A stretch of DNA of 63,173 nucleotides, filler included, from Chrysochromulina tobinii (taxonomy: Eukaryota), in assembly GCA_001275005.1 (NCBI GenBank). It is 9 parts of 9 records of this genome, joined end to end, with 100 filler letters (N's around TTAATTAATTAA, not from the genome) between each part and the next. Parts side by side here need not be neighbours in the genome. Positions count along the whole stretch, not along the records: positions 31,785 to 51,112 come from JWZX01000104.1; 8 more parts are not named here. One strand, written 5' to 3'. The position numbers were made by a program, and so were the translations under genes. The notes under the pieces are model-generated. The model saw nothing but the letters and a program-made list of their open reading frames with translations. It was not told the origin of the DNA and made no database searches. Below, piece by piece: positions 3,533-59,579 of this stretch (within the stretch, counting starts at the first letter, position 1; every line of letters begins with the position of its first letter).

Positions 3533-3801
3533 TCTGACTTAGTATTGATCAACGACCATGTCGGACAAGTTCATGAACATGTCGGAAAGACCCACGATCA
3601 TGTTGGAAAGATCATGGGTCCCTCCGTATCGACTTGATGAATCATGTATCATGTATCATGTATCATGTATCTTGCATCCGTCCGACCCCCATACTTCGGC
3701 AAATGTTGAACTTTCCACGACAATCTGCGCGCGCGCGAAGGATTGGGCACCTCTGACGCCCTTTGGTGTTCCGAGCGTCCCAGGCCGACCTCAACATCAT
3801 C

Positions 3802-9078: not shown

Positions 9079-9205
9079 TACTGTCCACGTGCGAAATTCA
9101 AGTTGGGGGTAAATTCAAACTTGAACTCCGACGGCGAATTCCGCACACACGGCTTGATTGCTTTTGTACAGCTTTGTGATTCATTCAGCAGCAGCTTCTT
9201 GATCA

Positions 9206-31684: not shown

Positions 31685-32184
31685 NNNNNNNNNNNNNNNN
31701 NNNNNNNNNNNNNNNNNNNNNNNNNNNNTTAATTAATTAANNNNNNNNNNNNNNNNNNNNNNNNNNNNNNNNNNNNNNNNNNNNGTATCTCTGTCGTCGT
31801 TGTCTCGCCGCTGCCTCTGCCGTCCTTGCGAGTGATGCGCTTTTTTCAATCATGCCGATCAACTGCGGTCCGATCTTGATTTCTTCCGTTAGCCTGCCTG
31901 TCGCAGTTCTCGCGTCGGCGATGTGCGGTATCTTTGGTTTGCGCGGTCCCGTCCTGTGGCTCCTGGCTGGTCTCGTCGTATGTGGCGACCCTGTTCCTTC
32001 TGCGCGCTCCGGCCAGGACCGCTGCAACGGGCCCGCTTGCCCCACTCGTCGGCGCTGTTGCGCGCGCCGCACGTTCTGGCGCCGTGTTGGTTAACTACGT
32101 CCGTGAACAACGCCCCCTAACATCCCCAATAGTATGCGGGCCTCACCCTCATCCTCTGTCACCCAAAGTGCAAAGACGTTGCTA

Positions 32185-33681
32185 TCACCCCATCGCCTGA
32201 CCCATCGCCACCCGCAGCATCTCGCTCACGTCGACGAGCTTCTCGCGCACCTTGCCAACCTGCTTGCCACGCGCCACCTCGCTCGCGTCTATGCGCTTCC
32301 ATGCCTCAAAGTCGAGCACCGGCTGCCGCTGTGCGGCGAGCCGCTTGCGCACCGCATCGGCACCCGCGCCTCCCACATCGAGCTTGCCAGTCAGCCGATC
32401 CGCGATCAGAGTGGCGGCCGTCTCGTTCGCGTCGTTCACGTTGGTCAGGATGACGCCGGTCGGCCCACGCTTAAGCCAGCCAGCCACGTACAGCCCGGGG
32501 GCGCCCGTGACGCGCCCGCCTCTGTTCGGCACCACGCCGCGCACTTCGTCAAATGGCGCGCCCTCGAGGGGAGACGAACGGTACCCTACCGACTTGAGCA
32601 CCAGGCCGCACGGGAAGTCATACGCGCTGCCCTCCACGAGATGCGCGCGCTGCTGCGCGGAGGGCTCGCCCTCGAGTTTCGTCAAGCCCACACGCACAGC
32701 GCCGAGCCGCCCAGGGTCCTCGGCCGCGCCGACGAAGCCGAGCGGAGCGCGCTGGAACTGCACGCGCACAGCGCGCGGCGAGTCCGCGCCTGGCGGCGGC
32801 GGTGGGTTCGGCAGCTCGGCCTCATTGGGGATGGAGCTCATGAGCTCGATCAGGCGCTTGCGCGGCCGGTCGGTAGCGGCTTGCTTGAGGACGGCCTCGT
32901 TGAAGGCGTCGGCGGGCGCGAGCAAGCTGAACGTCGCGCCCGCTCGCTTTGAGAGCTCGCGAAGCTCCTTGATAGTGAAAGCCGCATGCAGCACACCGCG
33001 CCGGCCGAGCAGCACGACCTGCCGGATGGCGCTCTGGCTGAGCGCGGCGGCTGCATGCGCGGCGACGTCCGTGTCCCCCACGAGCTGCTCGGGCGTCGAG
33101 CTGAGCATGCGCGCGCAGTCGAGCGCCACGTTACCGTGCCCGATGATCACTGCCGTCTCGCACCTGCCCAATTCAAAGTCTCGATCCGCTGCGTGCGGGT
33201 GCCCGTTGTACCACTCTACAAAGGTGCGGGCGGAATGCACGCCTCGCAGGCCCTCGCCACTGAGGCCGAGCGAGCGGTCGGCGTCAGCGCCGTACGCGAG
33301 CACGACGGCGTGGTACTGCTCACGCAGAGCTTCGAAGGGCAGATGCGCGGCCACGTCGCCGGGCGGGCCGGCTGCACCAACCCGCACGTTTGCAAGCAGC
33401 GAGCAGCGCGGATCGGAGACGATCTGCTCGAAGCGGTCGGTGACGTTCTTGACCGCCTGATGGTCGGGCGCCACTCCATACCGCACCAATCCGTACGGCA
33501 CCGGGAGCCGCTCGTAGATGTCCACGTGCACGCCCGGGTCGCTCTTGAGCAGCTGATCAGCCGTATAGAAGCCCGCAGGACCGCTGCCAACGATCGCGAC
33601 GTGCCAGGGGCGCGCCGATGCGGTGGAGAAGCGTCGGAGTGCCGGCAACGCCGAGTGAGAACGCCGCACAGCTGCGTGCAT
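32185..33681 (-). CDS. FDXR: NADPH:adrenodoxin oxidoreductase (mitochondrial ferredoxin reductase)
   Basis: GSGPAGFY, PYGLVRYGVAPDH, IGHGNVALDCAR, AFTIKELREL, GWLKRGPTGVI, KVREK. Arg/Ser-rich transit peptide. Confidence 0.93.
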   Translation of the reverse strand: MHAAVRRSHSALPALRRFSTASARPWHVAIVGSGPAGFYTADQLLKSDPGVHVDIYERLPVPYGLVRYGVAPDHQAVKNVTDRFEQIVSDPRCSLLANVRVGAAGPPGDVAAHLPFEALREQYHAVVLAYGADADRSLGLSGEGLRGVHSARTFVEWYNGHPHAADRDFELGRCETAVIIGHGNVALDCARMLSSTPEQLVGDTDVAAHAAAALSQSAIRQVVLLGRRGVLHAAFTIKELRELSKRAGATFSLLAPADAFNEAVLKQAATDRPRKRLIELMSSIPNEAELPNPPPPPGADSPRAVRVQFQRAPLGFVGAAEDPGRLGAVRVGLTKLEGEPSAQQRAHLVEGSAYDFPCGLVLKSVGYRSSPLEGAPFDEVRGVVPNRGGRVTGAPGLYVAGWLKRGPTGVILTNVNDANETAATLIADRLTGKLDVGGAGADAVRKRLAAQRQPVLDFEAWKRIDASEVARGKQVGKVREKLVDVSEMLRVAMGQAMG

Positions 33682-33769
33682 GTGGAGACGAGGTTTCGTC
33701 ACATTCGGCGTCAATGTTCACGGCGCGCACGTTCACACAAACCGCGTTCACAGTTCAGACCATAATGTT

Positions 33770-34679
33770 TCAGAGGAGATGCGGCTGTCCGTGTATGTCA
33801 AGGTCAATGACATACGTCGGCCCCGCATGGCCGCTGCCGTCGCGGTCCGTGTAGTTGGCGCACCGTCGGGCTGAGTCGTGATCCAGCGCATCGAACTCAC
33901 GGATGGGCGCGAGCGAGGAGACGCGCGGCGACATGCTGTTGCGCAACGGCGAGCCCAGCAGAACCGGGACCGTGGCCGAGCCAGCCTTGGGCATTGTCAC
34001 GCGGATGCCCTCCTCGTCATGCGCGAAGGATGGTGAGTACGACGGCGTGGGCGAGACGGCGGCCGTGGCCGGCGAGGCAGCGGCGGTGCCCCCCCTCGTC
34101 CAGACGGGCGCATTGCCCTCGTCCGCGTCCTCGTACGAGCCGTCGTAGCGCGTCTTTGTCCTAGACGGCGCGCCGTACGCCTTGTACGCCGGCGCCGCTG
34201 GCCGCTGGCCGATGGCGGCTGCGGCGGCGGCGTGCTGGGCGGCGGCAGCGGCGGCGGACTCGGCGGCGGCCACACGCCCAAGCAACGCGCCGCGCTCCCT
34301 CTCGAGCGCCGCGGCCTCAGAGGCCCAGTGCTCACCACGGCGCCTCGACTCGGCGGCCTCGGCTGCCTCGGCATCAACGGTCGCGCGCGCAGAGAGGATC
34401 TGATCCTCGAGCTCGGAGACCTCGGCGCTCGCCGCCTCGTGCATTGCCGCGTGCTCCTCGAGCAGCCGCGCGTGCTCGTCGCGCAGCTGGCTCAGTGCCG
34501 CCTGCGCGGTCACGAGTTCCGAATCGAGTTGACGATGGGCGGCCAGCAGCGCCTCATGATCACTGAGCACGCCCATGTGCTCCGTCGTGAGTGCAGCGAG
34601 CTCCGCGCGCACCTCGATGAGCGCTGCCTGCGCCTCGCGCACGCGCAGCACCTCGCGCGCTGACGGCGAGCCAGCCGGC

Positions 34680-34727
<48 letters not shown>

Positions 34728-35620
34728 ACATCGAGAAAGCCGTCCTCGCCGTTGGCCTCCTCAGCGGCGGCGGCCTGCGCGAGCGCGGCGTGGTGGCCGT
34801 GCAGCGCGCCCTCGAGCATGCGGCGCACGAGCGCCTCCGCTGCACCGACCGCGTCCGCCTGTGAGGGCCCCCCGGGTGTCTCCAGGCTGCCCTGCCGCCC
34901 TGCGGTGGCAGCGCCCTCGAGGCCGGGGAGCGCGAGAAGCGAGTCGCCGAGCTCACGCACGGCCGCGCTGAGTGCGGCGGTGGCTAGCATGGCGACAAAG
35001 GGCTGCACGAGCGCCGACGGCAGCTCGCCGCCCCCAGCCGCGTTCGCCGACAACCCGAGCTCCTCCTGTGCGTGCGCCAGCTCATCAAGCATGACCTGCG
35101 AGAGCCGTGAGCCCATCAGCCGTTGCAGCCGCTCGGTGAGCCGGCGGGTGACGATCTCACCCGACGGGCCGCGCAGTGGCGCACGCTCGAGCGCCGGAAG
35201 CACCGTCATCAGCCACACGCGCGCCACCTCCTCGCGCGCGACCGTGCCGCGCACGTCAGGCTGCAGTTGCGAGAGTGCGGCGCTCTGCACCGACGCGGCC
35301 ATTGCCGGGTCGAGCGGCCGGGTTGCGACACGGAGCGAGTCGACGACGGCCGAACGCTTGATGCGCTGGTTCGATGCGGCCGTCGCCACTGTCGCCACAT
35401 CGCCCTCGCTCGGGTGAAAGGGCCCGTTGACTGGAAGGGCCGGCTCGCTGGCGCCGAGGCCCTGGCTGCATCGCCAGCCCGACTGGAGCGGCAGCGGCGG
35501 CACGGCCGAGCCAAACTGACCGCCGGCCGACGAGCTCTTGGTAAACAGGCTCGTGCAGCTCGGGCGGTCGTTGTTGAGGGCGTTCATTGTTGGCCTTAGG
35601 GGCGTTTTAGCGGACTCCAT
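33770..35620 (-). CDS. Uncharacterised coiled-coil protein with a poly-Gly tract
   Basis: Long Ala/Glu/Leu-rich heptad ORF with (GGC)n at about 34682-34726. Both ends uncertain. Confidence 0.55.
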
Positions 35621-35720
35621 CGCGAATTTTGAGTTGTCAGCTGGGTACATTGTAGCTTTCCACTTCCAAATTTGTCCTTCGGATGCCAAGGCCCCTCAGA
35701 GACCTCAGACAAAATTAGAC

Positions 35721-37846
35721 ATGCGACTCAACCTCGGCTTCCTGCTCGGCGACCCTACTCCGACACCGCCCCCAACTAGCGGCGTGTCGGACGTCTACCT
35801 TCTCGCCACCATGCTGATGACGGCACTCGTAATCGTGCTCCACGTCATGTCCCACCTGCGCAACTGGAAGAGCGGCGGCAGCGCCCAAGCAGGTGGGGCC
35901 CTCAAGGCTGCGGTATCGATGGCGTCTCAGCACACGCAGGAGCTCCTCGACTACGTCGCGCTCCTCGAGAAGCGCGTCAAGGAGCTCGAGCTTGCCACGG
36001 GCGCGGTCCCACCCCCAAAGAAAAAGATTGAGCGCGCTGAGGATTCCCCTCTCCTCAAGTCAGCGCACAAGGCTGCGTCGGTTCCCAAGGTGCCGATCGA
36101 GAAGCAGATCGATTACAGCTCGGCGGATGCATCCAAGTGGAACTTCACGGAGCTGGTATCGTGGCGATCGCAAGGCTCAAACTCCGCGCCCCGACCCAAT
36201 CCAAGCTTCCCATGTGACTTCGGGTCTCGCCGCTTCGCAGACCTACAAGGGCTCCGCTCGCTACATCGCCGTTGGGAAGGAGGAGAAGGTCCAGGGCCCC
36301 ATCGCAGAAGGCCTCAAGAAGATTCGCGAGACGCCTGCCAAGTACTTCGCCATCAAATATCAGACGGTCAGCTCCATGTTCTGTCCTGTACTCTGGGAGC
36401 CCCTGAGAGTCCCTCAAGTCTGGATTGCCCTGGTCCACGTCGAGAGTCAGCGAGAGTCCGAAGGGGAGAGTCCAATCGGCCCCTGAGTGTCCCGTGCTCG
36501 ATCCAGACTCTCCCCTTCGACCTTCTTTCAGGATGCTGTCGCGCGCCCTGTCCGTCTCGTTTGCAGCCTCACGCGCGGCCCTCGTCCGCTCTCTCGCACA
36601 GGACATGGCCGAATGGCCGGCTGGCGAGCAGGAGTACCGCCTCATCCATCGTGAGGGCACGAAGGGCTATTCGCCGCAAAATACGGGGCCGGACGGCTGG
36701 ATGACCATCTTGATGGCCGAATATCAGAGGCTGCCCTCACTGCCTTCCCTTCCGGACGAGGTGAAGGACGGCTTCACGGAGGAGATGGCATTCCAAGGCT
36801 ACTTGCTCCACCATGCGAAGAACCCACCCCTGTTCCCCGGCCGCGGACAGGGCATCGGCGATACTCCCAATCTGAAGATAATTGGCGACATCGACCCCTC
36901 GGACGTGTCCCAAGGCGACGTCGGCGATTGCTGGCTGCTCTCAGCCATCTCTTCGCTGGCCGAGTTCGACGGTGCGATTGCCAGGCTCTTTCGCAAGACG
37001 CCCAACCTCAAGAGCATGCCCAGGGAGGGCCCGAACAAGTACACGATCTCGCTGTGGGACCTCGCGACCTGGACGGAGGTCGACGTGGTGGTCGACGAGC
37101 GCCTTGCGGCCAAGGCGACGGGCGACGGGCTCCTTGGATGCTCGCCCAGCCACGATGGCGAACTGTGGGTGTGCTACCTCGAGAAGGCGGTCGCGATCCA
37201 CTGTGGCGGCTGGGACGAGATCGATGGCGGCCAGTGCACGCACGCGTGGAGCATCCTCACGGGCTGCAAGGAGCAGTACACCATTCGCAAAGGCAAGACT
37301 GGCAAGTTTGGCTGCCTGAGCAAGTTCAACCCCAACGAGAGGAGGTGGGAGGCTCTCGAGAACTCGCCGCAAAAGGGCTTCCGCGGGCTCTGGCCGAGCG
37401 CGTGGCCCAAGGTCGGCGGCGGCGGCAGCTATACACTCCAGCTCGACGAGGAGGAGCTCTTCATGCGCATGTGCGCGTGGGACGACGCCAACTTCGTCAT
37501 CGCCGCGGGCACGAAGGCGGGCTCGGACACGCAGTCCACCGACGGCATCGTCGATGGGCATGCGTATACGGTGCTCGAGTGCGTCAACGACGTGGCTGGC
37601 ACGGACGTCGACCTCATCAAGATGCGCAATCCTTGGGGCAAGGGCGAGATCGAGAATGGTGAGTTTGATGACGACGGCCCCGGCTGGCAAAAGTACCCCC
37701 AGGTCAAGGCGTTCCTGAAGCCGGTCGTGGCCGACGATGGCATCTTCTGGCTGAGCAAGGACGAGTTCTTCAAGTACTTCCACACGTTGTATGTGTGCGC
37801 CAAGGACATGTCCGACTTCATCCCGGCCCACGAGCGCAAGAATTGA
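35721..37846 (+). CDS. Calpain-family cysteine protease (CysPc) with an N-terminal TM segment and coiled coil; exons 35721-36155, 36241-36366 and 36602-37846
   Basis: Catalytic motifs QGDVGDCW, GHAY and RNPWG. Two phase-0 GT-AG introns join three ORF-track frames into one. Confidence 0.85.
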
Positions 37847-38142
37847 GCGGAAAGGGGGCAGGCAGGCGGGTGACCCAAGAAGATCATGCATGGTGAGCGA
37901 ATGGCTCACGTGTATGGGGAGGTCTTAAGTTGACGAGCACCTTGGGGGTCCACAACATCACTGCGCAAATCTTGATGACGAATAGGCACATCTACGCTTT
38001 ACATGAGTGGTCACTGTAGGGTCTCGGGGGTAGCTGGTGTGTTGGGAGTGGAGGGTCGCGCAGTTTTTGTGTTTTGCATTCACACCTCGGACAAAAAAGC
38101 AGGTTTTGTCCACAGCCTCTCGTCTTTAGTCTCCCCCTCTCG

Positions 38143-38852
38143 ATGTTGGTCGTCTTCGCGGCGCTCACATACACGGCGGCCCCAGCACTCTCGCTGGGCG
38201 CCAACAACACTGTGCGCTACTTCTTCGGCTCCAAATGACCCGGGTGCATGTCGTTCGGTTCCGGCGACTTCGTCAAGCTCTTTGACGACGTGCGTGTTTC
38301 GCAGCAACCGGACTCGAACGGTGCCTCACCATCCACTCACCAATCTCAGGAGCGCACGTTCGACTCTCGCCCTGGCAGTTCGGCGAGACGGACAACTTCG
38401 AGCTCATCCCAGCCGTGCGCCATCCTACTGGTGGCAACTGCGTCGATGAGACTGGCTGCGACTTTGAGAAGATCACGGCATGCGCTTTCGATGGCGTCCC
38501 AGAGTCCAAGCAGGTGTCCTTCCTCGCGTGCATGGACGAGCAGCGCGTCGGCACTCCCCAGTCCTGTGCCCAGACGTGCGCCATCAAAGACGACCTGCAC
38601 TATAATGCGATCGAGGATTGCTTCAACGGGCCGCGTGGCAACGAGCTGCTCGCGAATGCCTCCAAGGCCTTCAACGATGCGCTCCCGGGCTCAACAACGA
38701 TCCCGCACACGTTTGTGAACACGGCCGACGTGCAGCCCTCCTACACCACGCTCAAGTTGGCGCTCTGCCAGGCGGGCTCGTCGGCAAAGGTGTGCAAGTC
38801 TCTCGTCGAGGACGCTGACGGTCTCAACTCCTATAGAAAATGCACCGTCTAA
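38143..38852 (+). CDS. GILT-like thiol reductase selenoprotein (UxxC); exons 38143-38289 and 38379-38852; in-frame TGA at 38236-38238 read as Sec
   Basis: Signal peptide, then FFGSK-TGA-PGC. Downstream GILT-like pattern VSFLACMD, IEDCFNGPRGNELL, IPHTFVN and LC. Phase-0 GT-AG intron and a 3' SECIS. Confidence 0.8.
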
Positions 38853-38902
38853 AGGGGCCACAGGCACGAGGTCGACCACGCGCGCCTGGCTGACAGCACT
38901 TT

Positions 38903-38990
38903 GGGTGCCTCTTTCCTGCTCACACATGACCGCGGCCGGAGCAAACCAAGCCTCCGTCCCCGCGCGAGACCAGATGAGAAGGAGACGCCC
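38903..38990 (+). promoter_or_regulatory. Eukaryotic SECIS element in the 3' UTR
   Basis: ATGA 38926-38929, AAA 38943-38945 and GA 38966-38967. Upper stem CGCGG..CGGAG pairs with CTCCG..CCGCG; lower stem GGGTG..TTCCT.CTCA pairs with TGAG.AGGA..CGCCC. Confidence 0.8.
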
Positions 38991-39630
38991 CCGAAAGCGC
39001 TTTGGTGCCGAGACGCGACGCGCGAAATCGGACGAGCAGGCTTAACCGCCTCCGAAACGAGTGAAGTATGAAAATCAGCCGTTGTTCTGTGTGTCTGCTC
39101 ACTGGATCTGAACTGATTCCGCCACGACCTTGTTTTTGCATTGGCCATTGCACCTCGGTCCTCGCCGGCTCCTTGATGGGCGCTTTACCGCCTCGGGGCC
39201 CTTCTCGCCGCTGCCCCCCGCTCCGCGGCGGGCGGCGACGGTCGCCGCGCGCGCCGGCGAGGCGCGGCGCGGCGCGCACGGTCGGCGCGCACCGACGCGC
39301 AATTCCGCAATATCCGAAATGGAAAATCCTTAGATATCGAAGGACGAACAAGAGCACAATTCGAAACACGAAGCGCCCGAGGCGCACACACACATATCGC
39401 AACATGCAACAAAGCGGAACGTTGTGTCGCAAACTCCGCCGAACACAGATCAACGACGCGTCCCCCGACCGTGGTCCGACTATGTGACCACAGCACTAGA
39501 AATCATGACAAGGAAACGGCCAACAGTAGCCCTCTCTATGGGCGTATGGGGCTCAGCTGCGCGCGTGGGATGTCGCCGCCGCGCTCGCTCACACATGCGC
39601 CCCGAAGCCCCGCCCACCGTCCGCGACGCC

Positions 39631-41502
39631 CTACTGCAGCTTGCCGACGGCCTTTGTCACGGACGACGTGACCGACGAGGTGAGCGCAGCGACTTGCTTG
39701 CGGTCGGGGATGTTGGCGGCGATGCCGGTGGCCATTTCCCAAGTGGAGCCGCCGCCGCCGCCTGCTCCACCTGCTGGCGCCTCGCCCGAGAGCTTGGAGA
39801 GCTCTTCCATGAAGGTGTCGCCGTTGTGCATCGTGGTGCTGCTGAGCACAATTTTGACGCCAGGGTTGGCAGCGTTCATCTCACCGACGTAGCGTGCCTC
39901 TTCGTAAGTGGCACCACCGATCATGAAGACGAAGATCTCTGTAGGCGCGCGCTTCTTCTGTGCCGCGGGCAGCTCGGGACCGAGGTAGGGGTGCGATGCC
40001 TCCGAGAGCGTGCCCTTGGTCACCGCCTCGAGCGTCTGCGCAAGTAGGGGCGAGTGCTGCGTGTACACGTTCTGCACGCCCTGCATCTGGCGCTTCATCG
40101 TCTTCTTCAACAGGCCGAGGGTGGACTTGTCGCCGTAGAGGTCGCCCGCACGTTGCTGAGCGCCGTAGTGCTGTAGGATGATGTCGACGAGCTGCACCTG
40201 CTCGGGCGAGGCGCCCGACACCGCGAGAAGTTCTTTGAAGTTGGCGATGCGGTTCTCCCCGTTTCGCTCGTAGCGCAGCGCGTAGAGCAACACGAGGCGA
40301 AGCTTGTTCGGAATGGCGATCGATGGCTTCTGCAACAGGGCCTCAACCTCGGAGACGGCTGAGGTGTGGTCGAGGGTGCACGCGAGCTCCTGCTCCACCT
40401 GCGAGCACTCCATGAGCGACATCTTGTCGACGAGCCTGTTGATCTCGCCCATGAGCGTGACGTGCTTCGTCACGTCGCCCGACATCTTTTTGAACTCGGG
40501 GTAGTCCTCGACGAACTTTTGCATGTCGGCGATGGACGAGATGGTCTTGGAGGACTTGGTCTTCGCCTGGAAGTTGTCCATCATCGCCTTCACCTCCTCG
40601 GCGAGGTCGCCGTAGTTGTTGTACATATTGGTCGCAAAGAAAGGGTCCTGCTCCATCGAGAGTACTACCTGCTCGAGTTCCTTCGGGACGCCGGGCCGGT
40701 CGCGCAGGTCGACGCGGTTGTTGGAGATGCCAAGCAGCTCGTGCACCATGGCCTGGTACGTCCACTGGTTGAGCAGCGGCGTCACCGGGTCATCGCGCCG
40801 GTCGAGCAGCAGCAGCAGCGGCGGCACATCCGTCTTACGGAAGGCGAACAGGTCCGCCTCCTCATTGATGGTGGCGAGCACCGACTCCGCAACTCGCATA
40901 GCCATCTCCGACCTGCCCTGGTACCGGATGAGCGGGCGCTTCTTGAGCGCGAGCAGCAGCGCCACCACGCCACTTTGCATCCGGTCGAACGTCGGCTGTG
41001 CCATCATGCCCGACCCCATGTGCGCAATCGAATGCATGCCGAGCGAGACGCAGTCAGCGTTGATCGCGAGGAAGTCGGCGTAGAACTCCTGCACCGACTG
41101 GACGACCTCGTGCTCGTCGGCCTCGGCGAGCTTCGGGAGCATCGAATCGCGCATGATGTTCGAGAAGAAGATGTGGTACTCGCCGTACCTGGGGTCCTTG
41201 AACTCTTCCTGCAGGCGCTCTATGTTCTCGTGCGTCGGTCGCACAAAGTAGATGGCTTTCAGGTGCGCCATCTTGTCGCCGCGCGCCTTCTCGATCGCAT
41301 CGATGAGGAACACCTCATGCTGCAGGATCTGCGTCTGCGTGTACACCATCGACACGAAGCCTGTCGTCTCCGCGTCCATCACGAGCACCTTCATGCCCGA
41401 GACGTCCTTGGCCATGCGCGTGACATAGTCGCGCACCGCGGCGATGCACGACATGCCCGGCACCGGCTTCGCGACGCTCCGCGCGGCGGATGACGATGCC
41501 AT
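39631..41502 (-). CDS. VPS45: Vacuolar protein sorting 45 (Sec1/Munc18 family)
   Basis: GMKVLVMD.ETT..VSMVY, MAHLKAIYFVRPT, DEHEVV..VQEFYAD, LDRRDDPVTPLLNQWTYQAMVHELLGI, GGATYEEA. Confidence 0.95.
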   Translation of the reverse strand: MASSSAARSVAKPVPGMSCIAAVRDYVTRMAKDVSGMKVLVMDAETTGFVSMVYTQTQILQHEVFLIDAIEKARGDKMAHLKAIYFVRPTHENIERLQEEFKDPRYGEYHIFFSNIMRDSMLPKLAEADEHEVVQSVQEFYADFLAINADCVSLGMHSIAHMGSGMMAQPTFDRMQSGVVALLLALKKRPLIRYQGRSEMAMRVAESVLATINEEADLFAFRKTDVPPLLLLLDRRDDPVTPLLNQWTYQAMVHELLGISNNRVDLRDRPGVPKELEQVVLSMEQDPFFATNMYNNYGDLAEEVKAMMDNFQAKTKSSKTISSIADMQKFVEDYPEFKKMSGDVTKHVTLMGEINRLVDKMSLMECSQVEQELACTLDHTSAVSEVEALLQKPSIAIPNKLRLVLLYALRYERNGENRIANFKELLAVSGASPEQVQLVDIILQHYGAQQRAGDLYGDKSTLGLLKKTMKRQMQGVQNVYTQHSPLLAQTLEAVTKGTLSEASHPYLGPELPAAQKKRAPTEIFVFMIGGATYEEARYVGEMNAANPGVKIVLSSTTMHNGDTFMEELSKLSGEAPAGGAGGGGGSTWEMATGIAANIPDRKQVAALTSSVTSSVTKAVGKLQ

Positions 41503-41968
41503 CAGTCCTCACGTGCACGTCCCCCGAGCTGGTCTGCACTGCCTTTGCGCACGGACATGTTCCCTTCAGCCCCGGGCAATTTTGTTCACACCTTGGGCCA
41601 GGCCGAAAGATTCTAAAAGGTCGATCGCGGCGGCCTCGACATCCCAACTTAGTTTTACTTAGAATTGGATAAAATTATGTAAGTTCAATGCAATGTCGTA
41701 CATGTAAAGGTGTGCCTCGCCGTCCATCCAAGCGCAAGCGTCTGTGCTCTGCCCCGCGTGGTCCTTTCCGGAGGGGTGCGAGTGCTGTGCGGGTTCCCGG
41801 GGCGTGGGGCGTGAGGGTTTCTAAAGTCCTCATGAGTCCTCACACCTGCCTACCGTTAGGCTTGGTCTAGGGAACAACCACTCTGTAACCACCTTCAGGG
41901 CGGGCCGCTGTGGTCGTCGTTGCTCCAGGGACCTCTTATCCCTCGCGTCTCGGCGCCGCACCTCCGAG

Positions 41969-44900
41969 ATGGGTGACGCGCCGACCGATAAGCGCATCGA
42001 CTTCCTCCGTGACCGCATCGTCCAGCTGCTGAAGTGCAAGCCGGAACTTTTCGACGCACTTCTCAAAACTGAGGAGGGCGAGCTGATCAAAAGGTTCCTG
42101 AACGATGGCGGCTGCACGCGCATCTTCTTCAGCGCGGGCCCCAAGGATATGTTCGTGACGGAGAAGCTCCCCGACGACAAGCAGACGAAGAAGAAGGCCA
42201 TCTTCGCCATGAAGCTGGCCGAAGACGTCAAGTTCGACGAGAAGAAGATGGACGAGATGTTTGACCTATGCATGGTCGGCGACCTTTCACCAGCGATGCT
42301 GAACAATCTGTACAACACGCTGCGGAGCGTGTATCTGCCCATCATCACCAACCCAGGCTTCATCAACGCAAAGCCCGGCGTGGTCATGAAACAGTTCATC
42401 GACAAGTACAATTGGATGCTCGCGGCAGTGCACACAGCTGTCGGCCAGACGCAGGGCAAGACTGCCCTCTGGCTGCCGCCCGTGGAGGCCCCGTCGGCTG
42501 GCAGCAGCAAGGACCGCTCGGACAAGGACCGCGTGCACGTTCTTGAGAGCGCTATAGTCATGTGGACCGAGCGCATCAACACTGTGCGCCGCTCCCCTTC
42601 TCCCCATTGGCTGCGGCTGCCGCTGCCGCCGCTCCCATCCCCCCCCCGGGCTCCGCCCCCTTGTTCGTGTCCTTCGGCTGACCCATCCGTTGCACACCCA
42701 CGCAGTCCCTTAATCGCGATCCCGATTCGGTCTTCGGCGCCGTTGGCACCAAGGACGAGCTCTTCCCAGGGCCCATCGTGGGCATTGACTTCTGGCAGGG
42801 CAAGTGCATCGACTTGGGCGACATTCTCGAGCAGCTCAGCAGCCCGCACATCGTCAAGGTGATGAAGGTGCTCGAGATCATCCGCTCGCCGTACCATGCC
42901 TCCTTCAAGGCGCTGATGAATCAGCTGTCGATTCGGCACGCGGAGGCCAAGGACAACGTCAAGTTCCTCGATTCGCTCCGCCCCAAGTTCACGGCGCTCC
43001 TGCAGTCCGACTTCACGGAAATCGCCATGCACTTCAAGCCGACGATGCACACGCTGCTGATGATCTGGAAGCACTCCAAGTTCTACAACACGCCGCCCGC
43101 GCTGGCACTGATGGTGCGCATGCTCTGCAACGACGTGATCGAGAAGGCGCACGAATTTCTGGGCGGCACGGGCGAGCTCTTTGGCGCCGAGCCCAAGGAG
43201 TCGGTCGAGAAGATCAACAGGGTGCTCAACGTGTGCCGCGCCCTCAAGTCCGACTACTATATGTACTACGCGCTCTCGAAGACGCAGTGCGAGCACAACC
43301 CGTGGATGGCCGACCGCGGCAACATGTTCAAGCGGCTCGACCTCTTCATCACGCGCTGCGAGGACCTGCTGCACTTGTGCCGCACGGCGCAGCAGTTCGA
43401 GAAGCTGATCACCGTCGTCATCGGCGGCATCGCGGGCGCTGCCCTCACGCAGGACTCCGAGACCATCGCGAAGGAGTTCGACAAGGCACTCAACAAGATG
43501 AAGGAGCTCACGTACGACGTGCTCGACGTGCAGATCACGAAGTTCGAGGAGGACATCACGCGGTTCTCAGTCTCGGTTAAGGAGCTCGAGACTCGCGTTG
43601 CCAAGGTGCTCGGGCTCGGCTTCGAAGAGTGCGACACCATCTCCAAGGGGTTCAAGCTTGTCGACTCCTTTGGCGACCTGCTCGAGCGCGACTTCGTGCA
43701 AGCCGACCTCGAAGCGAAGCAGCTCGAGCTCATCCGCATCTATGCTGAGGAGCTCAAGCAGGTGCAGGAGCTCTTCACGCGCGACCGCACTGGCTCCGCC
43801 TCCAAAGCCAAGTTCTTCGAGCGCGACGGGCCGCCGCTGTACATCAACATGCCGCCCGTCTCGGGGGCGCTCGCGTGGGTTCAGGGCCTCAGGAGGCGGC
43901 TCGAGGAGCCGATGAGATCGCTCATGCCGGTGCTGCGCATCATGGAGGACACGGATGAGGTCAAGGACGTTAAGCGCATGTTCGACTCGATCATCAAGGT
44001 GCTCCGTGAGTATGAGGACATGATGTTCGATGCGTGGCAAGGGGGCGTCGACACCACGCTCGGCGAGAAGCTCACGCTGCCGCTCATCACGCGCGACCCC
44101 AAGTCGCAGGAGATCGAGGTCAACTTCGACCTGCAGCTCACGAAGCTGCTGTCGGAGTGCAAGTACTTCGTGATGCAGAAGAAGAAGATCCCCGACGTCG
44201 CGCAGCAGCTTTTCGATGGTGCCGAGACGTTCCGGGTGCATACGGCCAACCTGACGCTCGTCAAGAACAAGTACAATGAGATGCTGCGCATCATGCTCGA
44301 CGTCGAGAAGCCGCTGCTCAAGGGCTCAATGAAGGCGATCGACAAGGTGCTCGACCGCGGCCTCAAGGTGCTCGTATGGAAGTCTCCCAACCCGGAAAAG
44401 GACGCCTTCATTACCGAGGCCTTGGGGCTTGTGGAGGAGGCGTACAAGATGCTGCACGAGATCAAGAAGAACATGAACAAAGTCAACGAAATCCTGGCTG
44501 GCTGGGTGTCGTTGCCCTTCATGACGCGCCTGTCGATTAACAAGACGTACAACCCCTCAGCCTACATGGAGGAGCACTCCCGCTTCCTCGAGACGCGCAC
44601 GAAGGACATCACCGAAGGCATCAAGAAGATCCACGAGTATGTCAAGGAGTCCAACGAGTGCCTCAAGGTGTCGAAGGGCGCGCCCGCGTGGCGCGCGTAC
44701 GTCGAGTTCATGAACAACATCCTGATCAACGGCGTTGCCGACACGGTCGTCGCCTCGCTCGGCTACCTGCTCGCGCAGCTCGACCCGAAGATCATCGCAA
44801 AGTTGGAGAAGGCGCCCTTTTTCGACATCAAGCTCGACCTGAACGTGGTGGCCAAGGGCGATGATGCCGTCTTCTTCGCGCCGCCGCTCGACGGAAAGGA

Positions 44901-47900
44901 GCCGTCGGTGACGAGCTACGTGACAGCGCTCATTGCCGACTTTTACAACATCGTCAAGGGCCTCAAGCGCCTCGACCGCACCGAGGGCGACTTTCTCAAG
45001 GAGATGGAGGAGAACGAGATGGTGCGCTTCAACGTGCACCGCATCGTCGATGAGCTCGAGGCCAACCAGACCGCGGCACGCGAGCTCCGCGCGCCATTCC
45101 TCAAGCACCGCGCCCTCTGGGCCAAGGACATTGCGCACACGCTCGAGGTCTTCCTCGACGAGGCCACCGTCGCCGCCGACGAGAACAACCCGCAGATTCG
45201 GATGCCGAACTTGGCCGTCTTCGAGGCGCGCATCACCGAGCTCAGGGAGGAGGAGGCAGAGATCAAGGCGCTCCAAAACGTAATCAACGAGGGCTGGCTG
45301 CGCATCGATGCCAAGCCGACCAAGATGACGCTCACGACGCTCGCCGCCAAGTGGATCGACGCGTACACCAGCTACCTCAAGAACCACGTGCTCTCGGAGC
45401 TTGACGGCCTGGGCCAGTTCATTGGACTCATCAAGGAGACGCTCACGTCAGAGGCGCTTCCGTCGGAGGGTGACCGCAAGGGCCTCTTCGACGCGATGGC
45501 GCGCGTGCGCGACGTGCGAAACCGGGAGGATCGCACCAACAACCTCTTCGTGCCTCTCAAGGACACGATCCAGCTCCTCAAGAAGTTTGGCGTGGCCATG
45601 CCCGAAGGGACGACCGATACGCTCGAGATGATCCCCTTCAGCTGGGAGGACACGAAGAAGATCACGCTCAACGCTCGCGAGAACCTCGGTCCGCTGCAGG
45701 CACAAGAGCAGGATAGGGTGCGTGAAGAGACCGAGGTCTTCCGTGGCGAGGTGAGCGCCTTCACCAAGCGCTTCCACGATGAGGCGCCCTTCGAGTTCAA
45801 GGTCGGCTGCGACGCTGCCTATGTGAGCATCAATAAATTCGCGAAGGAGTTGATGACCTTCGAGAAGCGCGCTGTCGACATCGCGCGCAACCAGGAGCTC
45901 TTCGAGCTCGCGGTCACTAATTGGCGCGATCTCAAGACGATCCGCACCGAGCTCACACTGCTCAAGCTCTCCTGGGATTTCGTGCAGTACGTTCAGGACA
46001 TATTTGGCTCGTTCCGCGCAACGCTGTGGACAGCCGTCGACGTTGAAGCCATGTCGGATCAGACCAAGAAGCTGCAGAAGGAGGTCAAGACGCTCAACAA
46101 GGCCATCCACAAGTGGGACGTGCACATCGGGCTGATGGCGCTCGTCGCCTCGATGTCCATCTCGCTGGAGGTGGTAGCCGAACTGCGCGACGATGCGATG
46201 CGCGAGCGCCACTGGAAGCAGCTCATGGTGGTCTGCAAGCAGACCTTCATCATGGACGACAAGCTGCAGCTCGATGCGCTCCTCAAGCTCGAGCTTGACA
46301 AGTTCCGGGATCCCGTCGGCGAGATCGTCGAGCGCGCGCGCGCCGAGATCAAGATCGACTTGCAGCTGCAAAAGATCATCAAGACTTGGTCGGGCCTCTT
46401 CCTTTTCTACAAGCCCTACAAGACCTCGGGCGTTCAAGTCCTCGAGCAGCCGGGCGATGTCTTCGAGGCGCTCGACGACAACGAGGTGGTGCTGCAGAAC
46501 ATGATGGGCAACCGCTTCGTCGGCTTCTTCGAGACGACCGTCACCTCGTGGAAGGCCAAGCTAGCTGCCACGCGCTCGACGCTCGACGTGTGGCTCGAGG
46601 TATCGCGCTCGTGGATGCAGCTTGAGTCCATCTTCCTCGCCTCCGAGGACATTCGCGAGCAGCTGCCCGAGGACGCCAAGCGCTTCGACGCCATCGACGC
46701 GGCCTTCCGCGAGCAGATGGCCGACGCGTGCCAGAACAACAACCCGATCGAGGTGTGCATGGCGTCGGGGCGTGAGGAAGTCTTCAAGAAGAACTTTGAG
46801 ATGCTCGAGCTGTGCCAGAAGTCGCTGGGCGACTACCTCGAGGTCAAGAAGAAGAAGTTTCCGCGCTTCTACTTCATCTCCGGTGCGGATCTGGTGGACA
46901 TCCTCTCTAAGGGCCGCTATGCGCCCAATGTGCAGCCGCATTTCTCCAAGTTCACCGACGCGACCGGCTTCATCGACTGGGCGCCCGACGCCGACGGCAA
47001 GCTCACCGGCCTCGCGCGCGGCTGCATTGCCATCGACGGTGAGAAGTTCCCGTACCCGGAGCCCAAGATGTGCGAGGGTGCCGTTGAGGATTGGCTGCTT
47101 GAGCTGATGAAGCACCAGGCTGCCATGTTCCGGATTAAGGTGAAGGAGTCCCTGGATGCGTACCTCGACAACCCGCGCGAGAAGTGGATCGACATGTATG
47201 GCTCGCAGCACTGCATCCAAACGGGCCAGGTCTGGTGGACCGCGGAGGTGCACGCCGCGTACGACCGCCTCGAGCAGGGCAACGAGAATGCGATGAAGGA
47301 GTACCTTGAGCTGTGCCGAACCGGGCTTAAAAACTACGCGGCGATGGTGCTCGGCGAGATGACCGGCGAGCTCCGCACGAAGGTGAAGACGTTGATCACC
47401 ATCGACACGCACGCGCGCGAGATCGTCGAGAAGCTTGTAATCATAAAGTCGGAGACGCCGACGGACTTCACATGGGCGTCACAGCTCAAGTTCCGCTGGC
47501 CCGATGCCGACGGGCCCCAGGACCTTTACATCAACATTTGCGACGCGGAGTTCGCCTCGCGCCACGAGTATGTGGGCAACCCGGGCCGTCTCGTCATCAC
47601 CGCTCTCACCGATCGCTGCTACATCACACTCACGCAGGCGCTCCGCCTCATGATGGGTGGCGCGCCTCAGGGCCCCGCCGGTACCGGTAAGACTGAGACG
47701 ACCAAGGATTTGGGCCGCGGCCTCTCGATTTGGGTCATCGTGTCCAACTGCTCGGACCAGATGAACAACAAGGTGACGGGCAGCTTCTTCTCAGGCCTCG
47801 CTCAGACGGGCGCGTGGGGCTGCTTCGACGAGTTCAACCGCATCACGGTCGAGGTGCTCTCGGTCGTCGCCACGCAGTACGGCTCCATCTTGCAGGGCAT

Positions 47901-50900
47901 CCGCGCCAACAAGACGCGCTTCATGTTCGAGGAAGAGGAGATCAACCTCGTCAACTCGATCGGCGCTTGGATCACCATGAACCCCGGCTATGCCGGCCGT
48001 GCCGAGCTGCCCGAGAATCTCAAGGCGCTCTTCCGCCCATGTGCGATGGTCACGCCCAACTTCGAAAACATTGCTGAGATCAACCTCGCCGGCGAGGGCT
48101 TCGTTGAGTCCAAGGACCTCGCCAACAAGTTCGTGACCATGTACTACGTGTGCGGCCAGCTGCTCTCGAAGCAGATGCACTACGATTGGGGTCTGCGTGC
48201 CATGTCGGGCGTGCTGCGCATTGCGGGTGGCATGAAGCGCGCGGATCCCGACAAGTCGGAGAAGCAGATTTTGATGCGCGCGATGCGCGACACGAACCTG
48301 CCCAAGTTCGTGCAGGCCGACTTTGGCATCTTCCAGAAAGTGATCACCGACTTGTACCCCGGCATCGACTGCCCGGCCATCATCAACCCTGCGCTAAAAC
48401 AGGCCATCCAAGATGTCATTAAAGACCCGGAAACGCACTGGTGGGGCACGCTCGGCCGGCCAGTCCTTCAGGCCGAGGAGAACTTCGTCATCAAGACGAT
48501 TAACCTGTTCGAGGCCCTCTCGGTGCGCCACTGCGTCTTCGTGCTCGGCACCGCCGGTGCCGCCAAGTCCGAGTTGTGGAAGACGCTCGCCGCTGCGCAG
48601 TCGTTTATGAAGATTGGCGGCGGCAATACGTTGTACAACCCGCTCAACCCTAAGGCCGTCACCTCCAATGAGCTCTACGGGTACGTGCACCCGGTGACCA
48701 AGGAGAACTTCGATGGTGTGATCGCCAAGATCATGCGCGACTTCGCCTCGGTGCCGCCTGATCACAAGAATGTTAACGTGCCCAAGTGGATGGTTCTCGA
48801 CGGCGACATCGACGCCGAGTGGATCGAGTCGATGAACACTGTGATGGACGACAACCGCATCCTGACCCTTACGACTAACGAGCGCATCCCGCTCACTAAA
48901 TCGATGAAGCTGATCCTAGAGATCTCGCACCTTCGCAATGCGTCTCCCGCTACCGCCTCGCGCGCTGGCTGCGTCTTTCTCAACGAGACCGACGTCGGCT
49001 GGCGCCCATACGTGGCAATGTGGGTCGAGACCATGGGTGACGCTAAGACGCAGACTATCCTTGAGCAGCTCTTTGAGACGATGGTCGCGCCCACGCTCAG
49101 CATGATCCGAAAGGAGAAGTGGGAGCACGTGACGCCCGTCAAGGATCTTGCGATCGTCGAGGTCATCTGCCGCATCCTCGAGGCGGTGCTCACGCCCGAG
49201 ACTTGCCCTGCTGGCTCCGAGAAGGAGGTGTACGAGTCCTTCTTCCAATTTGCGGCCGTGTGGGGTATCGGCGGCGCTTTCGGCTCCGACAAGGGCGCCG
49301 ACTTCCGCAAGGCGCTGGACGGCTACTGGCGCACCGAGTTCGGGAAGCTCTCGATGCGCTTCCCCGACGAGGGCAGCATCTTTGACTATTTTATTGACCC
49401 GACCACGAAGAAGAACGAGCCCAAGCGTTGCACACATTGGCGCGAGATCGTGCCCGGGTACACGCACGATCGCGCCGAGTCGTACTCGCGCATCTTCGTG
49501 CCCACGCTTGACACGACGCGACTGCTCTGGTTCTCAAACAATATGCTCAAGCTGCGCAAGCCGATCATGTTCGTGGGCAACTCGGGCTCCGCCAAGACGG
49601 TCGTTGCAAACGTGCTGCTTCGCCAGCAAGACGAGGAGGTGTGGATGTACAACATCATCTCGTTCAACTCGTTCACCATCGCCGCGTCGCTGCAGGTGAT
49701 GCTCGAAGCGCCGCTTGAGAAGAAGACGGGCACCATCTTCGGCCCGCCGGGCGTCAAGAAGCTCATCTATTTCATCGACGACTTCAACATGCCCTCGCCC
49801 GACAAGTACGGCAACCAGTCGTCCATCTCTCTTCTGAACCAGCTCAAAGACTACGGCGGCTTCTATGACCTCAAGGGCCTCCGCATGAAGCGTGTCGACA
49901 ACACGCTTGTGGTCGCGGCCATGAATCCGTTCTCGGGCACTTTCTACGTCCAGGATCGCATGCAGCGCCACTTCTGCACGCTATCAACGCCTTTCCCGTC
50001 GCAGGAGGTGCTCACACACATCTACAAGAACATTATGGGCGGTCACTTCGAGATCTTCAACGATGGGATTCGCGACGCGCTGCCGATGCTGCTCAACTTC
50101 GCCGTGGCGCTCCACAACCAGGTGGCCGACAACTTTGTGCCCTCGGCCGTCAAGTTCCACTACCAGTGGAACCTGCGCGCGATGGCGTCCGTGTTCCAGG
50201 GCCTCTACATCACGTCGCCCGCCAATTACAAGGACCCGGTGAGGATGGCGCGCCTGCTGATTCACGAGGCCTATCGCGTCTACTCGGACCGCATGGTCAT
50301 CGAGTCAGACTGCGAGAAGTTCCAGGAGCTGGTCACCAAGAACGTGAAGGCACACCTGGCCGCCCTCGACCAGGAGGCGCTGAACGAGTGGCCCATCCAA
50401 CTCTTCTCTACGTTCGTCGAGGAGGCCGAGGGCGAGCAGAAGATGTATCTGCCCATCGAAGGCGGCTATGAACAGCTCTCCAAGCTGCTCACCAAGCAGC
50501 TTGCCATGTACAATGAGTCGTTTGCGATCATGAACCTCGTGCTCTTCAACCAGGCGATGGAGCACATCGCGCGCATCTCGCGCATCATCGACAACCCGCG
50601 CGGCAACGGTCTGCTTGTGGGCGTCGGTGGCTCGGGCAAGCAGTCGCTCACGCGTCTCGCGGCCTTCATCGGCGGCTGCGAGATCTTCTCGATTAAGCTC
50701 ACGAGCTCGTACAACGTGGTTGACTTCAAGGAAGACCTGCGCAACATCTACTTGAAGACGGGCGTCAAGGCGATTCCGACTGTCTTCCTCTTCACGGACC
50801 AACAGATCTTCCACGAGAACGCGCTCATCTTCATCAACGACATCCTCTCGCTCGGCTACCCGGCCGGCCTCTTCGCCGAGGAGGATCGCGACACCATCTG

Positions 50901-51112
50901 CAACGGCGTGCGCAACGACGCGAAGCAGGCGGGCTACATGGACGCGAAGGAGCAGCTCTGGGAGTTTTTCATCAACCGCGTGCGCGCACTGCTGCACATT
51001 TGCTTGTGCATGTCGCCCGTCGGTGACAAGATGCGCAACCGGTGCCGCAAGTTCCCGGCGCTCACGTCCTGCACGACGTGCGACTGGTTCTTCAACTGGC
51101 CCCAGCAGGCGC
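41969..51112 (+). CDS. Axonemal dynein heavy chain (outer-arm alpha/beta-type), 3' truncated; intron 42584-42705
   Basis: P-loops GPAGTGKT, GTAGAAKS, GNSGSAKT and GVGGSGKQS, plus CFDEFNR and HYDWGLR. A phase-0 GTGCGC...CAG intron links ORF 41969 to the long ORF. Confidence 0.95.
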
Positions 51113-51530
51113 NNNNNNNNNNNNNNNNNNNNNNNNNNNNNNNNNNNNNNNNNNNNTTAATTAATTAANNNNNNNNNNNNNNNNNNNNNNNNNNNNNNNN
51201 NNNNNNNNNNNNGCCTCCCTCGCCGCCCCTTCCACCGCCGCCGCCCACGCTGCCGCCGCCATCGCCGCCGCCCTCGCCGTCGCTCTCGCCGCCGTCCTCC
51301 TCGCCGCCGCTCCTTTCGTCGCCACCTCCCTCGACACCTCCCTCGCCACCCCCCTCGCCTCTGCTGTCACATCCGTTGTTCTCCTCGCCACCGCCCTCGT
51401 CACCAAAAACGCCTTTTCTCGCCCTGCCACCGCCCTCGTCACCGAAAACCCCTTTTCTCCCGCGACGAAACGCGGTGCTAACCAACATGCCCCGCCGGGG
51501 CTGAACAGCCCCAGCCCGGCGGGGGGCTCT

Positions 51531-58822: not shown

Positions 58823-59281
58823 GCAAATAAGCGCTGGGGGCCGGAAGTGGAATCGGGAATTTCGGAATCCTGGGTTTGCAAGGAGCGTTGGGGGGCGGAA
58901 GTGTAATCGGGAATTTCGGAATCCTGGGTTTGCAAGGAGCTCTGGGGGCCGGAAGTGTAATCGGGAATTTCGGAATCCTGGGTTTGCAAGGAGCGCTGGG
59001 GGCCGGAAGTGGAATTGGGAATTTCGGAATCCTGGGTTTGCAAGGAGCGCTGTGGGCCAGAAGTGGAATCGGGAATTTCGGAATCCTGGGTTTGCAAGGA
59101 GCGCTGGGGGCCGGAAGTGGAAACGGGAATTTCGGAATCCTGGGTTTGCAAGGAGCGCTGGGGGGCGGAAGTGGAATCGGGAATTTCGGAATCCTGGGTT
59201 TGCAAGTAATGCAAGGAGCTCTGGGGGCCGGAAGTGGAATCGGGAATTTCGGAATCCTGGGTTTGCAGGGAGCGCTGGGGC
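58823..59281 (+). repeat. 54-bp tandem minisatellite, eight full copies plus a partial one (left arm of a foldback structure)
   Basis: Unit GCAAGGAGCGCTGGGGGCCGGAAGTGGAATCGGGAATTTCGGAATCCTGGGTTT starts at 58823, 58878, 58932, 58986, 59040, 59094, 59148 and 59211. Confidence 0.95.
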
Positions 59282-59579
59282 CAAGGGGGGGCTGGGACGT
59301 GCAAGGTTGCCCCCCCCCTCCCCCCCCAAAGCGCTGCGCGCCGCGCCGCGCTCCGCGCGCACCCAGCAAACCGCCGCGTAACGCCGCTCCACCTGTGGTC
59401 ACAGGGTCCATGTGCACCTTGCATACTTAATTTAGGCGCTCGCCTCGTCTTCCGCGTGACGCCGCACGCTACCTGTCACCTGTGGTTGGGCTCACGCCTA
59501 ACTCGTGGTTAGGCTCCCGCCTAACTCGTGGTTCCGTACGTTTTTACTAACCATTATAATAAAAAAAAAACTTAACCCC

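Follow-up and report, generated by a model that had tools for sequence, protein, structure and literature searches.

A GILT homologue with altered motifs around its active site in Chrysochromulina tobinii: a very likely hidden selenoprotein gene of a divergent branch

Does an in-frame TGA near the start of a cysteine-rich gene of Chrysochromulina tobinii end translation, or does it encode selenocysteine (Sec, U) in a thiol reductase of the GILT type? The gene lies in a 63,173-nt stretch of DNA (the window), in which distinct contigs follow one another with N44-TTAATTAATTAA-N44 between them, eight such spacers in all (for example 31685–31784 and 51113–51212), and the neighbourhood of the gene is valid only within 31785–51112. 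A reading of the window sequence by itself, which we refer to as the sequence-only reading, had proposed a hidden GILT-like selenoprotein with a UGA-encoded UxxC site and a SECIS element. Our analysis indicates that the gene is very likely a real hidden selenoprotein, well supported, that belongs to a divergent branch of a known class. We hold with good confidence that it is a spliced, transcribed gene whose UGA would be read as Sec via a SECIS, and whose product would be a secretory-pathway disulfide reductase of GILT fold. The features to which we refer are as follows.

35800–38083, plus strand: calpain-family protease gene, upstream; its TGA stop is at 37844–37846
38108–38142, plus strand: 5′ UTR; the contig of RNA run X15 starts at 38108, and there is no ATG within
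38143–38289, plus strand: coding exon 1, with the hydrophobic leader, first beta-strand, UxxC and start of helix 1
38236–38238, plus strand: UGA codon 32, inferred Sec, first position of UPGC
38242–38244, plus strand: Gly codon GGG, two codons past the UGA, the same in all eight orthologous sequences
38245–38247, plus strand: Cys35, the inferred resolving Cys, Cys in all eight TGA rows
38290–38378, plus strand: phase-0 GT..AG intron of 89 nt, ends GTGCGT...TGGCAG, with its joint seen in RNA
38379–38852, plus strand: coding exon 2 with stop, the Cys-rich GILT body
38853–39142, plus strand: 3′ UTR; the contig of RNA run X16 ends at 39142
38912–38985, plus strand: SECIS-type element with helix I, core AUGAC/CGAG, helix II and apical AAA
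39634–41502, minus strand: Sec1-family (Vps45) gene, in convergent orientation to the GILT gene; its RNA shows no joint

Direct reading from the ATG at 38143 gives a first exon of 49 codons that ends at 38289 and has an in-frame TGA as codon 32, in the context FFGSK-U-PGC, and the start, the K-TGA-P-G-C stretch and the continuing frame of the sequence-only reading are all borne out. The second exon, from 38379 to a TAA at 38850–38852, adds 157 codons, and the spliced product is 206 residues long with 11 Cys besides the Sec. The N-terminus is hydrophobic (Kyte-Doolittle 2.6 over nine residues), and six full-length homologues have similar leaders, with 26–28 residues ahead of the U site. From this hydrophobicity and the homologous leaders a signal peptide is predicted, so that the signal peptide proposed earlier agrees with the sequence features and keeps the standing of a prediction. 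The protein contains two N-glycosylation sequons, N21 and N142, and sequons are found in three of the seven homologues. No signal of KDEL type for retention in the ER is present at the C-terminus (YRKCTV).

The stretch is present in 16 public runs, six of which are on record as RNA. The joint 38289>38379 occurs in five of these six (X11, X12, X14, X15 and X16), in agreement with the phase-0 intron that had been called from sequence. The remaining RNA run, X13, has an intron-retaining contig only, and X11, X12 and X14 carry such a contig alongside the spliced form, so that retention, which shifts the frame, is seen in four of six RNA runs. The DNA run X10 lacks the splice joint, and all of its letters across the gene are identical to the window. 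In two RNA runs, single contigs (946 nt in X16 and 927 nt in X15) hold the TGA, the joint and the hairpin together with no differences from the window; since the TGA is unchanged in these spliced contigs, it is not spliced out, edited or an assembly error, and the mature RNA keeps it. As a weak hint that these contigs are transcripts, RNA cover is interrupted between this gene and the next, at 39143–39343, where DNA cover continues. An alternative acceptor AG at 38348–38349 would shift the frame and is used by no RNA contig. L001 and L003, two loci from metagenome contigs that are nearly identical to the window, show differences ahead of the gene and within the 3′ half of its intron.

Twelve loci came out of a scan of metagenome contigs, and seven of them were kept as divergent homologues (L004–L010). 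L001–L003 were left out as independent loci, being 99–100% identical to the window protein, and L011 and L012 were dropped as chance matches riddled with stops. The divergent loci have 48–62% identity to the window protein and no intron, and they align to it without gaps around the U site. All seven have TGA at the site codon, never TAA or TAG, within the consensus Y[FY]FGS[KRE]-TGA-PGC, and the codons that adjoin the conserved TGA vary synonymously. In L004, an open frame at 1090–1400 holds four in-frame ATGs that lie as far as 118 codons ahead of the Sec codon, and its possible N-terminus is thus much longer than those of the other homologues.

These homologues bear directly on the simplest alternative, in which the TGA is a true stop and the locus is either a pseudogene or the source of a shorter, catalytically dead protein that starts at Met36. 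An ATG does lie directly past PGC, database proteins start there or later, and intron-retaining RNA contigs occur. However, Met follows PGC in only three of the eight genes (the window gene and its seven divergent homologues), so conservation does not extend to a restart product, and all eight keep an in-frame leader and FFGS strand ahead of the TGA. A shared nonsense codon would not remain TGA across 48–62% divergence, and the upstream strand (E6–11) is part of the modelled fold described below. We therefore consider a true stop extremely improbable.

What the codon stands for is indicated by the proteins that lack it. Among 13 library rows without TGA, hand-picked for spanning the UGA column, 12 have Cys and one has Trp; the Cys rows comprise seven of eight from the subfamily and all five canonical GILT rows. 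A second Trp row, P0142, was excluded from the alignment as partial. A profile alignment places FFGSK-U-PGC on YYESYCPYC of canonical GILT (probability 96.7), and the UGA column thus corresponds to the leading Cys of CxxC in GILT. The expectation that homologues would show Sec or Cys in this column, and that Sec takes the place of the attacking Cys, is in this way upheld by alignment. Sec would accordingly be expected at codon 32, and its insertion there is very likely. As a separate observation, the library relative P0133 has CPPS at the site.

A different way to read through the codon would be insertion of Cys or Trp rather than Sec, by a changed code or by leaky readthrough. This alternative draws on the W in the column of two library proteins, P0082 and P0142, both with W-PGC at the site, and on two of the seven homologous transcripts that have no visible SECIS. 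The W rows may be TGA codons that gene callers translated under another code. Against a changed code, TGA serves as an ordinary stop in the upstream calpain gene, 15 residues past its Pfam domain, and it ends the frames of L007 (1023–1025) and L008 (618–620), in each of which one frame has UGA both at the Sec site and as the final stop; TGA ends these three frames, so there is no general UGA reassignment. Furthermore, the in-frame codon is restricted to the catalytic Cys column, and a SECIS-type element is found in six of the eight genes. Taken with these points, decoding as Cys or Trp is highly improbable, and Sec remains our reading of codon 32.

The hairpin in the 3′ UTR has the layout that the sequence-only reading described: AUGA at 38926–38929, 13 nt, AAA at 38943–38945 and GA at 38966–38967. 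Its core pairs AUGAC (38926–38930) with CGAG (38965–38968), and helix I spans from about 38912 to 38985. The spacing of about 50 nt from the stop that had been given is too short, as the AUGA follows it at 73 nt and helix I at about 59 nt. The description of the element as well formed was also too strong. Rfam returns no match at E ≤ 10 around the hairpin and none at gathering scores across the window, helix II contains a 1×3 internal loop, and the CGAG departs from the published consensus for the core, UGAN/KGAW (excerpts of PMC3753652). Free folding of 38890–39010 gives a z of only −1.5, so energy alone lends the SECIS no support. A third helix is absent from the window element, and five homologous elements fold one.

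Two comparisons nonetheless set the element apart from its background. Our own SECIS-type pattern (core, spacing, helices I and II), the thresholds of which were set after the elements had been seen, matches this element and nothing else on either strand of the 63-kb window, and matches 7 of 2000 dinucleotide-shuffled UTRs. A held-out covariance model, built from five homologous elements with the window element excluded, ranks the window element first of 48 matches in 67.9 kb (22.4 bits, E 0.0013), with the runner-up at 17.9 bits. The window hairpin is more than chance. Put to SECIS models, it is thus missed by Rfam and recovered by a model of its own relatives.

SECIS-type elements are found in five of the seven homologues, 61–117 nt past the stop. 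Their stem sequences differ and their pairing is kept; in a rough alignment of five rows, 10 of the 19 consensus pairs have changed on both sides in one or more sequences. None of the six elements matches KGAW, with CGAG in the window and UGAG, CGAG or CGAA in the homologues. In the element of L010 (1969–2013) the apex carries C's where A's are usual, a variant that excerpts of PMC3753652 allow in a few SECIS cases. L007 (1026–1437) and L009 (618–1031) show no SECIS by pattern or model and keep the TGA. A relaxed search of these two returned just long or badly closing candidates, and the top model match at the L009 candidate scored 9.3 bits (E 5.6). The L007 transcript reaches a poly(A) tail, and L007 and L009 share one tree branch. 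A tRNA search of the window found none.

The codons beside the UGA show a further regularity. The Gly two codons past the UGA is GGG in eight of eight genes, compared with 15 of 92 among their other Gly codons, and among 20 invariant four-fold columns this is the only one in which the third base does not vary; the pattern was spotted post hoc in related genes. It is possible that GGG after the UGA is a recoding context. A Sec redefinition element at the UGA was considered and is unsupported by the weak consensus hairpin around the codon (seven pairs, no compensatory changes, −0.19 kcal/mol).

Which family the protein belongs to is answered by sequence and by fold. Exon 2 alone scores 18.7 bits against Pfam GILT (PF03227), under the 22.4 cut-off, and the full-length homologue L004 scores 31.3 bits over profile positions 2–106 of 107. 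The sole significant sequence match to a solved structure is mouse GILT, 6NWX (E 1e-5 to 4e-5). An AlphaFold model was made of L004, the closest full-length homologue, standing in for the window protein (pLDDT 82.5; strand E6–11, then a helix from residue 16). The best match of this model is again 6NWX (Z 16.4, rmsd 2.7, 170 residues aligned, 19% identity), and in Foldseek 6NWX comes first (E 2.5e-5) and is alone at E ≤ 0.001; DsbA-like proteins take ranks 2–6 in the fold search (Z 13.2–14.6). The L004 model thus points to a GILT fold for this branch, as predicted by modelling, and the Cys-rich GILT-like domain called from sequence agrees with both the Pfam score of L004 and the match to 6NWX. 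The UPGC site follows the first strand, on the CxxC/S-type column, and the eight Cys columns outside the active site are largely common to canonical GILT. The GILT family typically has some ten conserved Cys together with glycosylation sites, and the 11 Cys and two sequons of the window protein agree with this.

The neighbourhood of the active site is another matter. According to excerpts of PMC7017176, the GILT signature is CQHGx2ECx2Nx4C; in all eight TGA genes its three Cys are kept, and QHG, E and N are gone. The window protein has CVDETGC where GILT has CQHGxxEC, and its whole counterpart of the signature, CVDETGCDFEKITAC, is one residue shorter, has no QHG and has Glu for Asn. Additionally, PAVR replaces P[FWY]GNA in the window protein, the branch has PA[VI]R where canonical rows have P[FY]G[NK], and IPHTFVN aligns opposite GILT VPWVLVN. 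In a quick tree of 77 rows, 72 rows without CQHG split from the five canonical domains with a support of 99; the tree carries a long-branch warning, and library proteins with short coverage were left out. The exchange of CQHG..EC for CVDETGC and the divergent subfamily that had been suggested from sequence are thereby confirmed by alignment and tree.

Cys forms fall inside the divergent group in the quick tree. Relatives of the branch such as P0120, listed under the dinoflagellate Apocalathium hangoei, also lack CQHG and have CPDE...C instead, with FGANCPxC on the UxxC column; relatives of this type have Cys rather than TGA and lie mostly in a neighbouring sub-branch. A library search at E ≤ 0.001 returned 501 proteins, 149 of which reach E ≤ 1e-10, and 129 of the best 150 begin downstream of the Sec column. 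Such late starts fit hidden TGAs, and short contigs, fragments or introns can produce them likewise. Among the cluster members listed for the window protein, the part before the TGA is present in none of 15, which matches the forecast that standard gene callers would truncate this gene. Short-pattern scans gave 27 matches in viral contigs and 17 in prokaryotic genomes, with no confirmed relative in either, a scope that does not prove absence.

The altered surroundings of the site raise the alternative that the same selenoprotein does another job, at the cell surface or along the secretory pathway, as a DsbA- or PDI-like oxidase or isomerase or as a peroxide-removing redox protein. PxGNA and CQHG, both beside the active site, are replaced; the branch that leads away from the five canonical GILT domains is long; DsbA-like chains are only about 2–3 Z units behind GILT; and five of 17 alignment rows also have weak Pfam Thioredoxin_4 matches. 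On the other hand, GILT is the best match by sequence and in two fold searches (Z 16.4 compared with 14.6 for DsbA), the Cys columns outside the active site are largely canonical, and the C-terminus is without an ER-retention signal of the KDEL type. We regard another job as unlikely, and our prediction is that the protein is probably a disulfide reductase of an acidic or secretory compartment.

For such a reductase, the following course can be proposed. From what is known of the family, the ribosome would insert Sec at the UGA, aided by SBP2 and eEFSec and directed by the 3′ SECIS-type hairpin. The leader would take the protein into the ER, and the ten remaining Cys would form structural disulfides. 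Of the two Cys of GILT, the first attacks the disulfide and the second resolves it (excerpts of PMC7017176). In the window protein, the selenolate of Sec32 would attack the substrate disulfide, Cys35 would resolve the mixed selenosulfide, and a small thiol would re-reduce the Sec32-Pro-Gly-Cys35 site. In a lysosome or food vacuole, where the pH is low, Sec would stay ionised, and the likeliest job would therefore be to unfold proteins, ingested or worn out, ahead of their digestion.

Comparison with known proteins shows what is shared and what is particular to this gene. To the extent that excerpts of PMC7017176 and the entries PF03227 and 6NWX describe them, GILT/IFI30 and plant OSH1 have in common with the window protein the fold, the active-site position, most of the structural Cys columns, a hydrophobic leader and glycosylation sequons. 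The window protein differs from them in that Sec would replace the first Cys and in that its leader runs nearly straight into the first strand. The sequence-only reading overrated the novelty of a Sec-containing GILT, as a UxxC Sec-GILT had already been reported in 2008, when Zhang and Gladyshev named Sec-GILT a new family of eukaryotic selenoproteins from Global Ocean Sampling reads (excerpts of PMC2398784). Three sequences are given there, with motifs UPGC, UPEC and UPEC and host unknown. They share with the window protein a eukaryotic GILT with Sec at the first CxxC position, and in these excerpts two of the three have a hydrophobic stretch before the site and one has a predicted 3′ SECIS. 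They have P[FLW]GNA in all three and CQHG in both that are long enough, whereas the window protein has neither; conversely, CVDE and TTIPH have no occurrences in those supplementary sequences of PMC2398784 that were consulted. For the window gene a spliced transcript is seen and the host is assigned, in contrast to the unknown host given in the same excerpts.

Algal parallels are known from family listings. Excerpts of PMC5917014 place GILT among the selenoproteins of Aureococcus anophagefferens, and excerpts of PMC7539508 place it among the least widespread algal selenoprotein families and report 96 predicted selenoprotein genes for Emiliania; common to these and to the window gene is a GILT selenoprotein in a selenoprotein-rich alga. 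In the literature searched, we found no description of a Sec-GILT without CQHG or of a Chrysochromulina selenoproteome, although an algal selenoprotein database may hold such sequences, and no characterisation of the Cys-containing members of the divergent branch.

The window gene is thus a well-supported, host-assigned and transcript-confirmed addition to a rarely seen selenoprotein family, and it brings no new mechanism, a UxxC GILT having been in print since 2008. Its interest lies in part in annotation. With late starts in most of the closest library relatives, the branch is systematically mis-annotated, and selenoproteome counts for plankton, haptophytes included, on which arguments about selenium demand draw, would fall short by these genes. 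Within one branch, Sec and Cys versions occur naturally and offer a direct test of the benefit of selenium to a disulfide enzyme of an acidic compartment, and the off-consensus SECIS elements can serve as training cases for SECIS finders. A bolder reading makes the window protein the type member of a large undescribed subfamily of microbial eukaryotes, with rebuilt surroundings of the GILT site, a new redox job and recoding signals of its own. The size of the subfamily would rest on tens of clusters at 50% identity, with nearly all database entries shortened, and its recoding signals would be the 3′ CGAG/UGAG core, the context UGA-CC[CG]-GGG and the members without a recognisable SECIS. We think this bolder reading rather doubtful, and keep to a divergent branch of the known class.

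On 31785–51112, the genes besides GILT encode an oxidoreductase, the calpain, Sec1/Vps45 and a dynein heavy chain, and nothing suggests a functional cluster. The neighbouring oxidoreductase falls in a 90% cluster with a Chrysochromulina parva protein, and the cluster of one homologue contains a Haptolina ericina protein; the likely host is a haptophyte of Chrysochromulina type from fresh water. The calpain gene has introns of 85 and 235 nt in RNA run X16. Elsewhere in the window, all on the plus strand, an open frame at 9203–11668 has a Temptin C-terminal domain followed by multicopper-oxidase domains, another at 3757–5835 has adenylate kinase and NUDIX domains, and a Gly-rich repeat frame at 58831–59427 is made of GALG..G..IGNFGILGLQ units.
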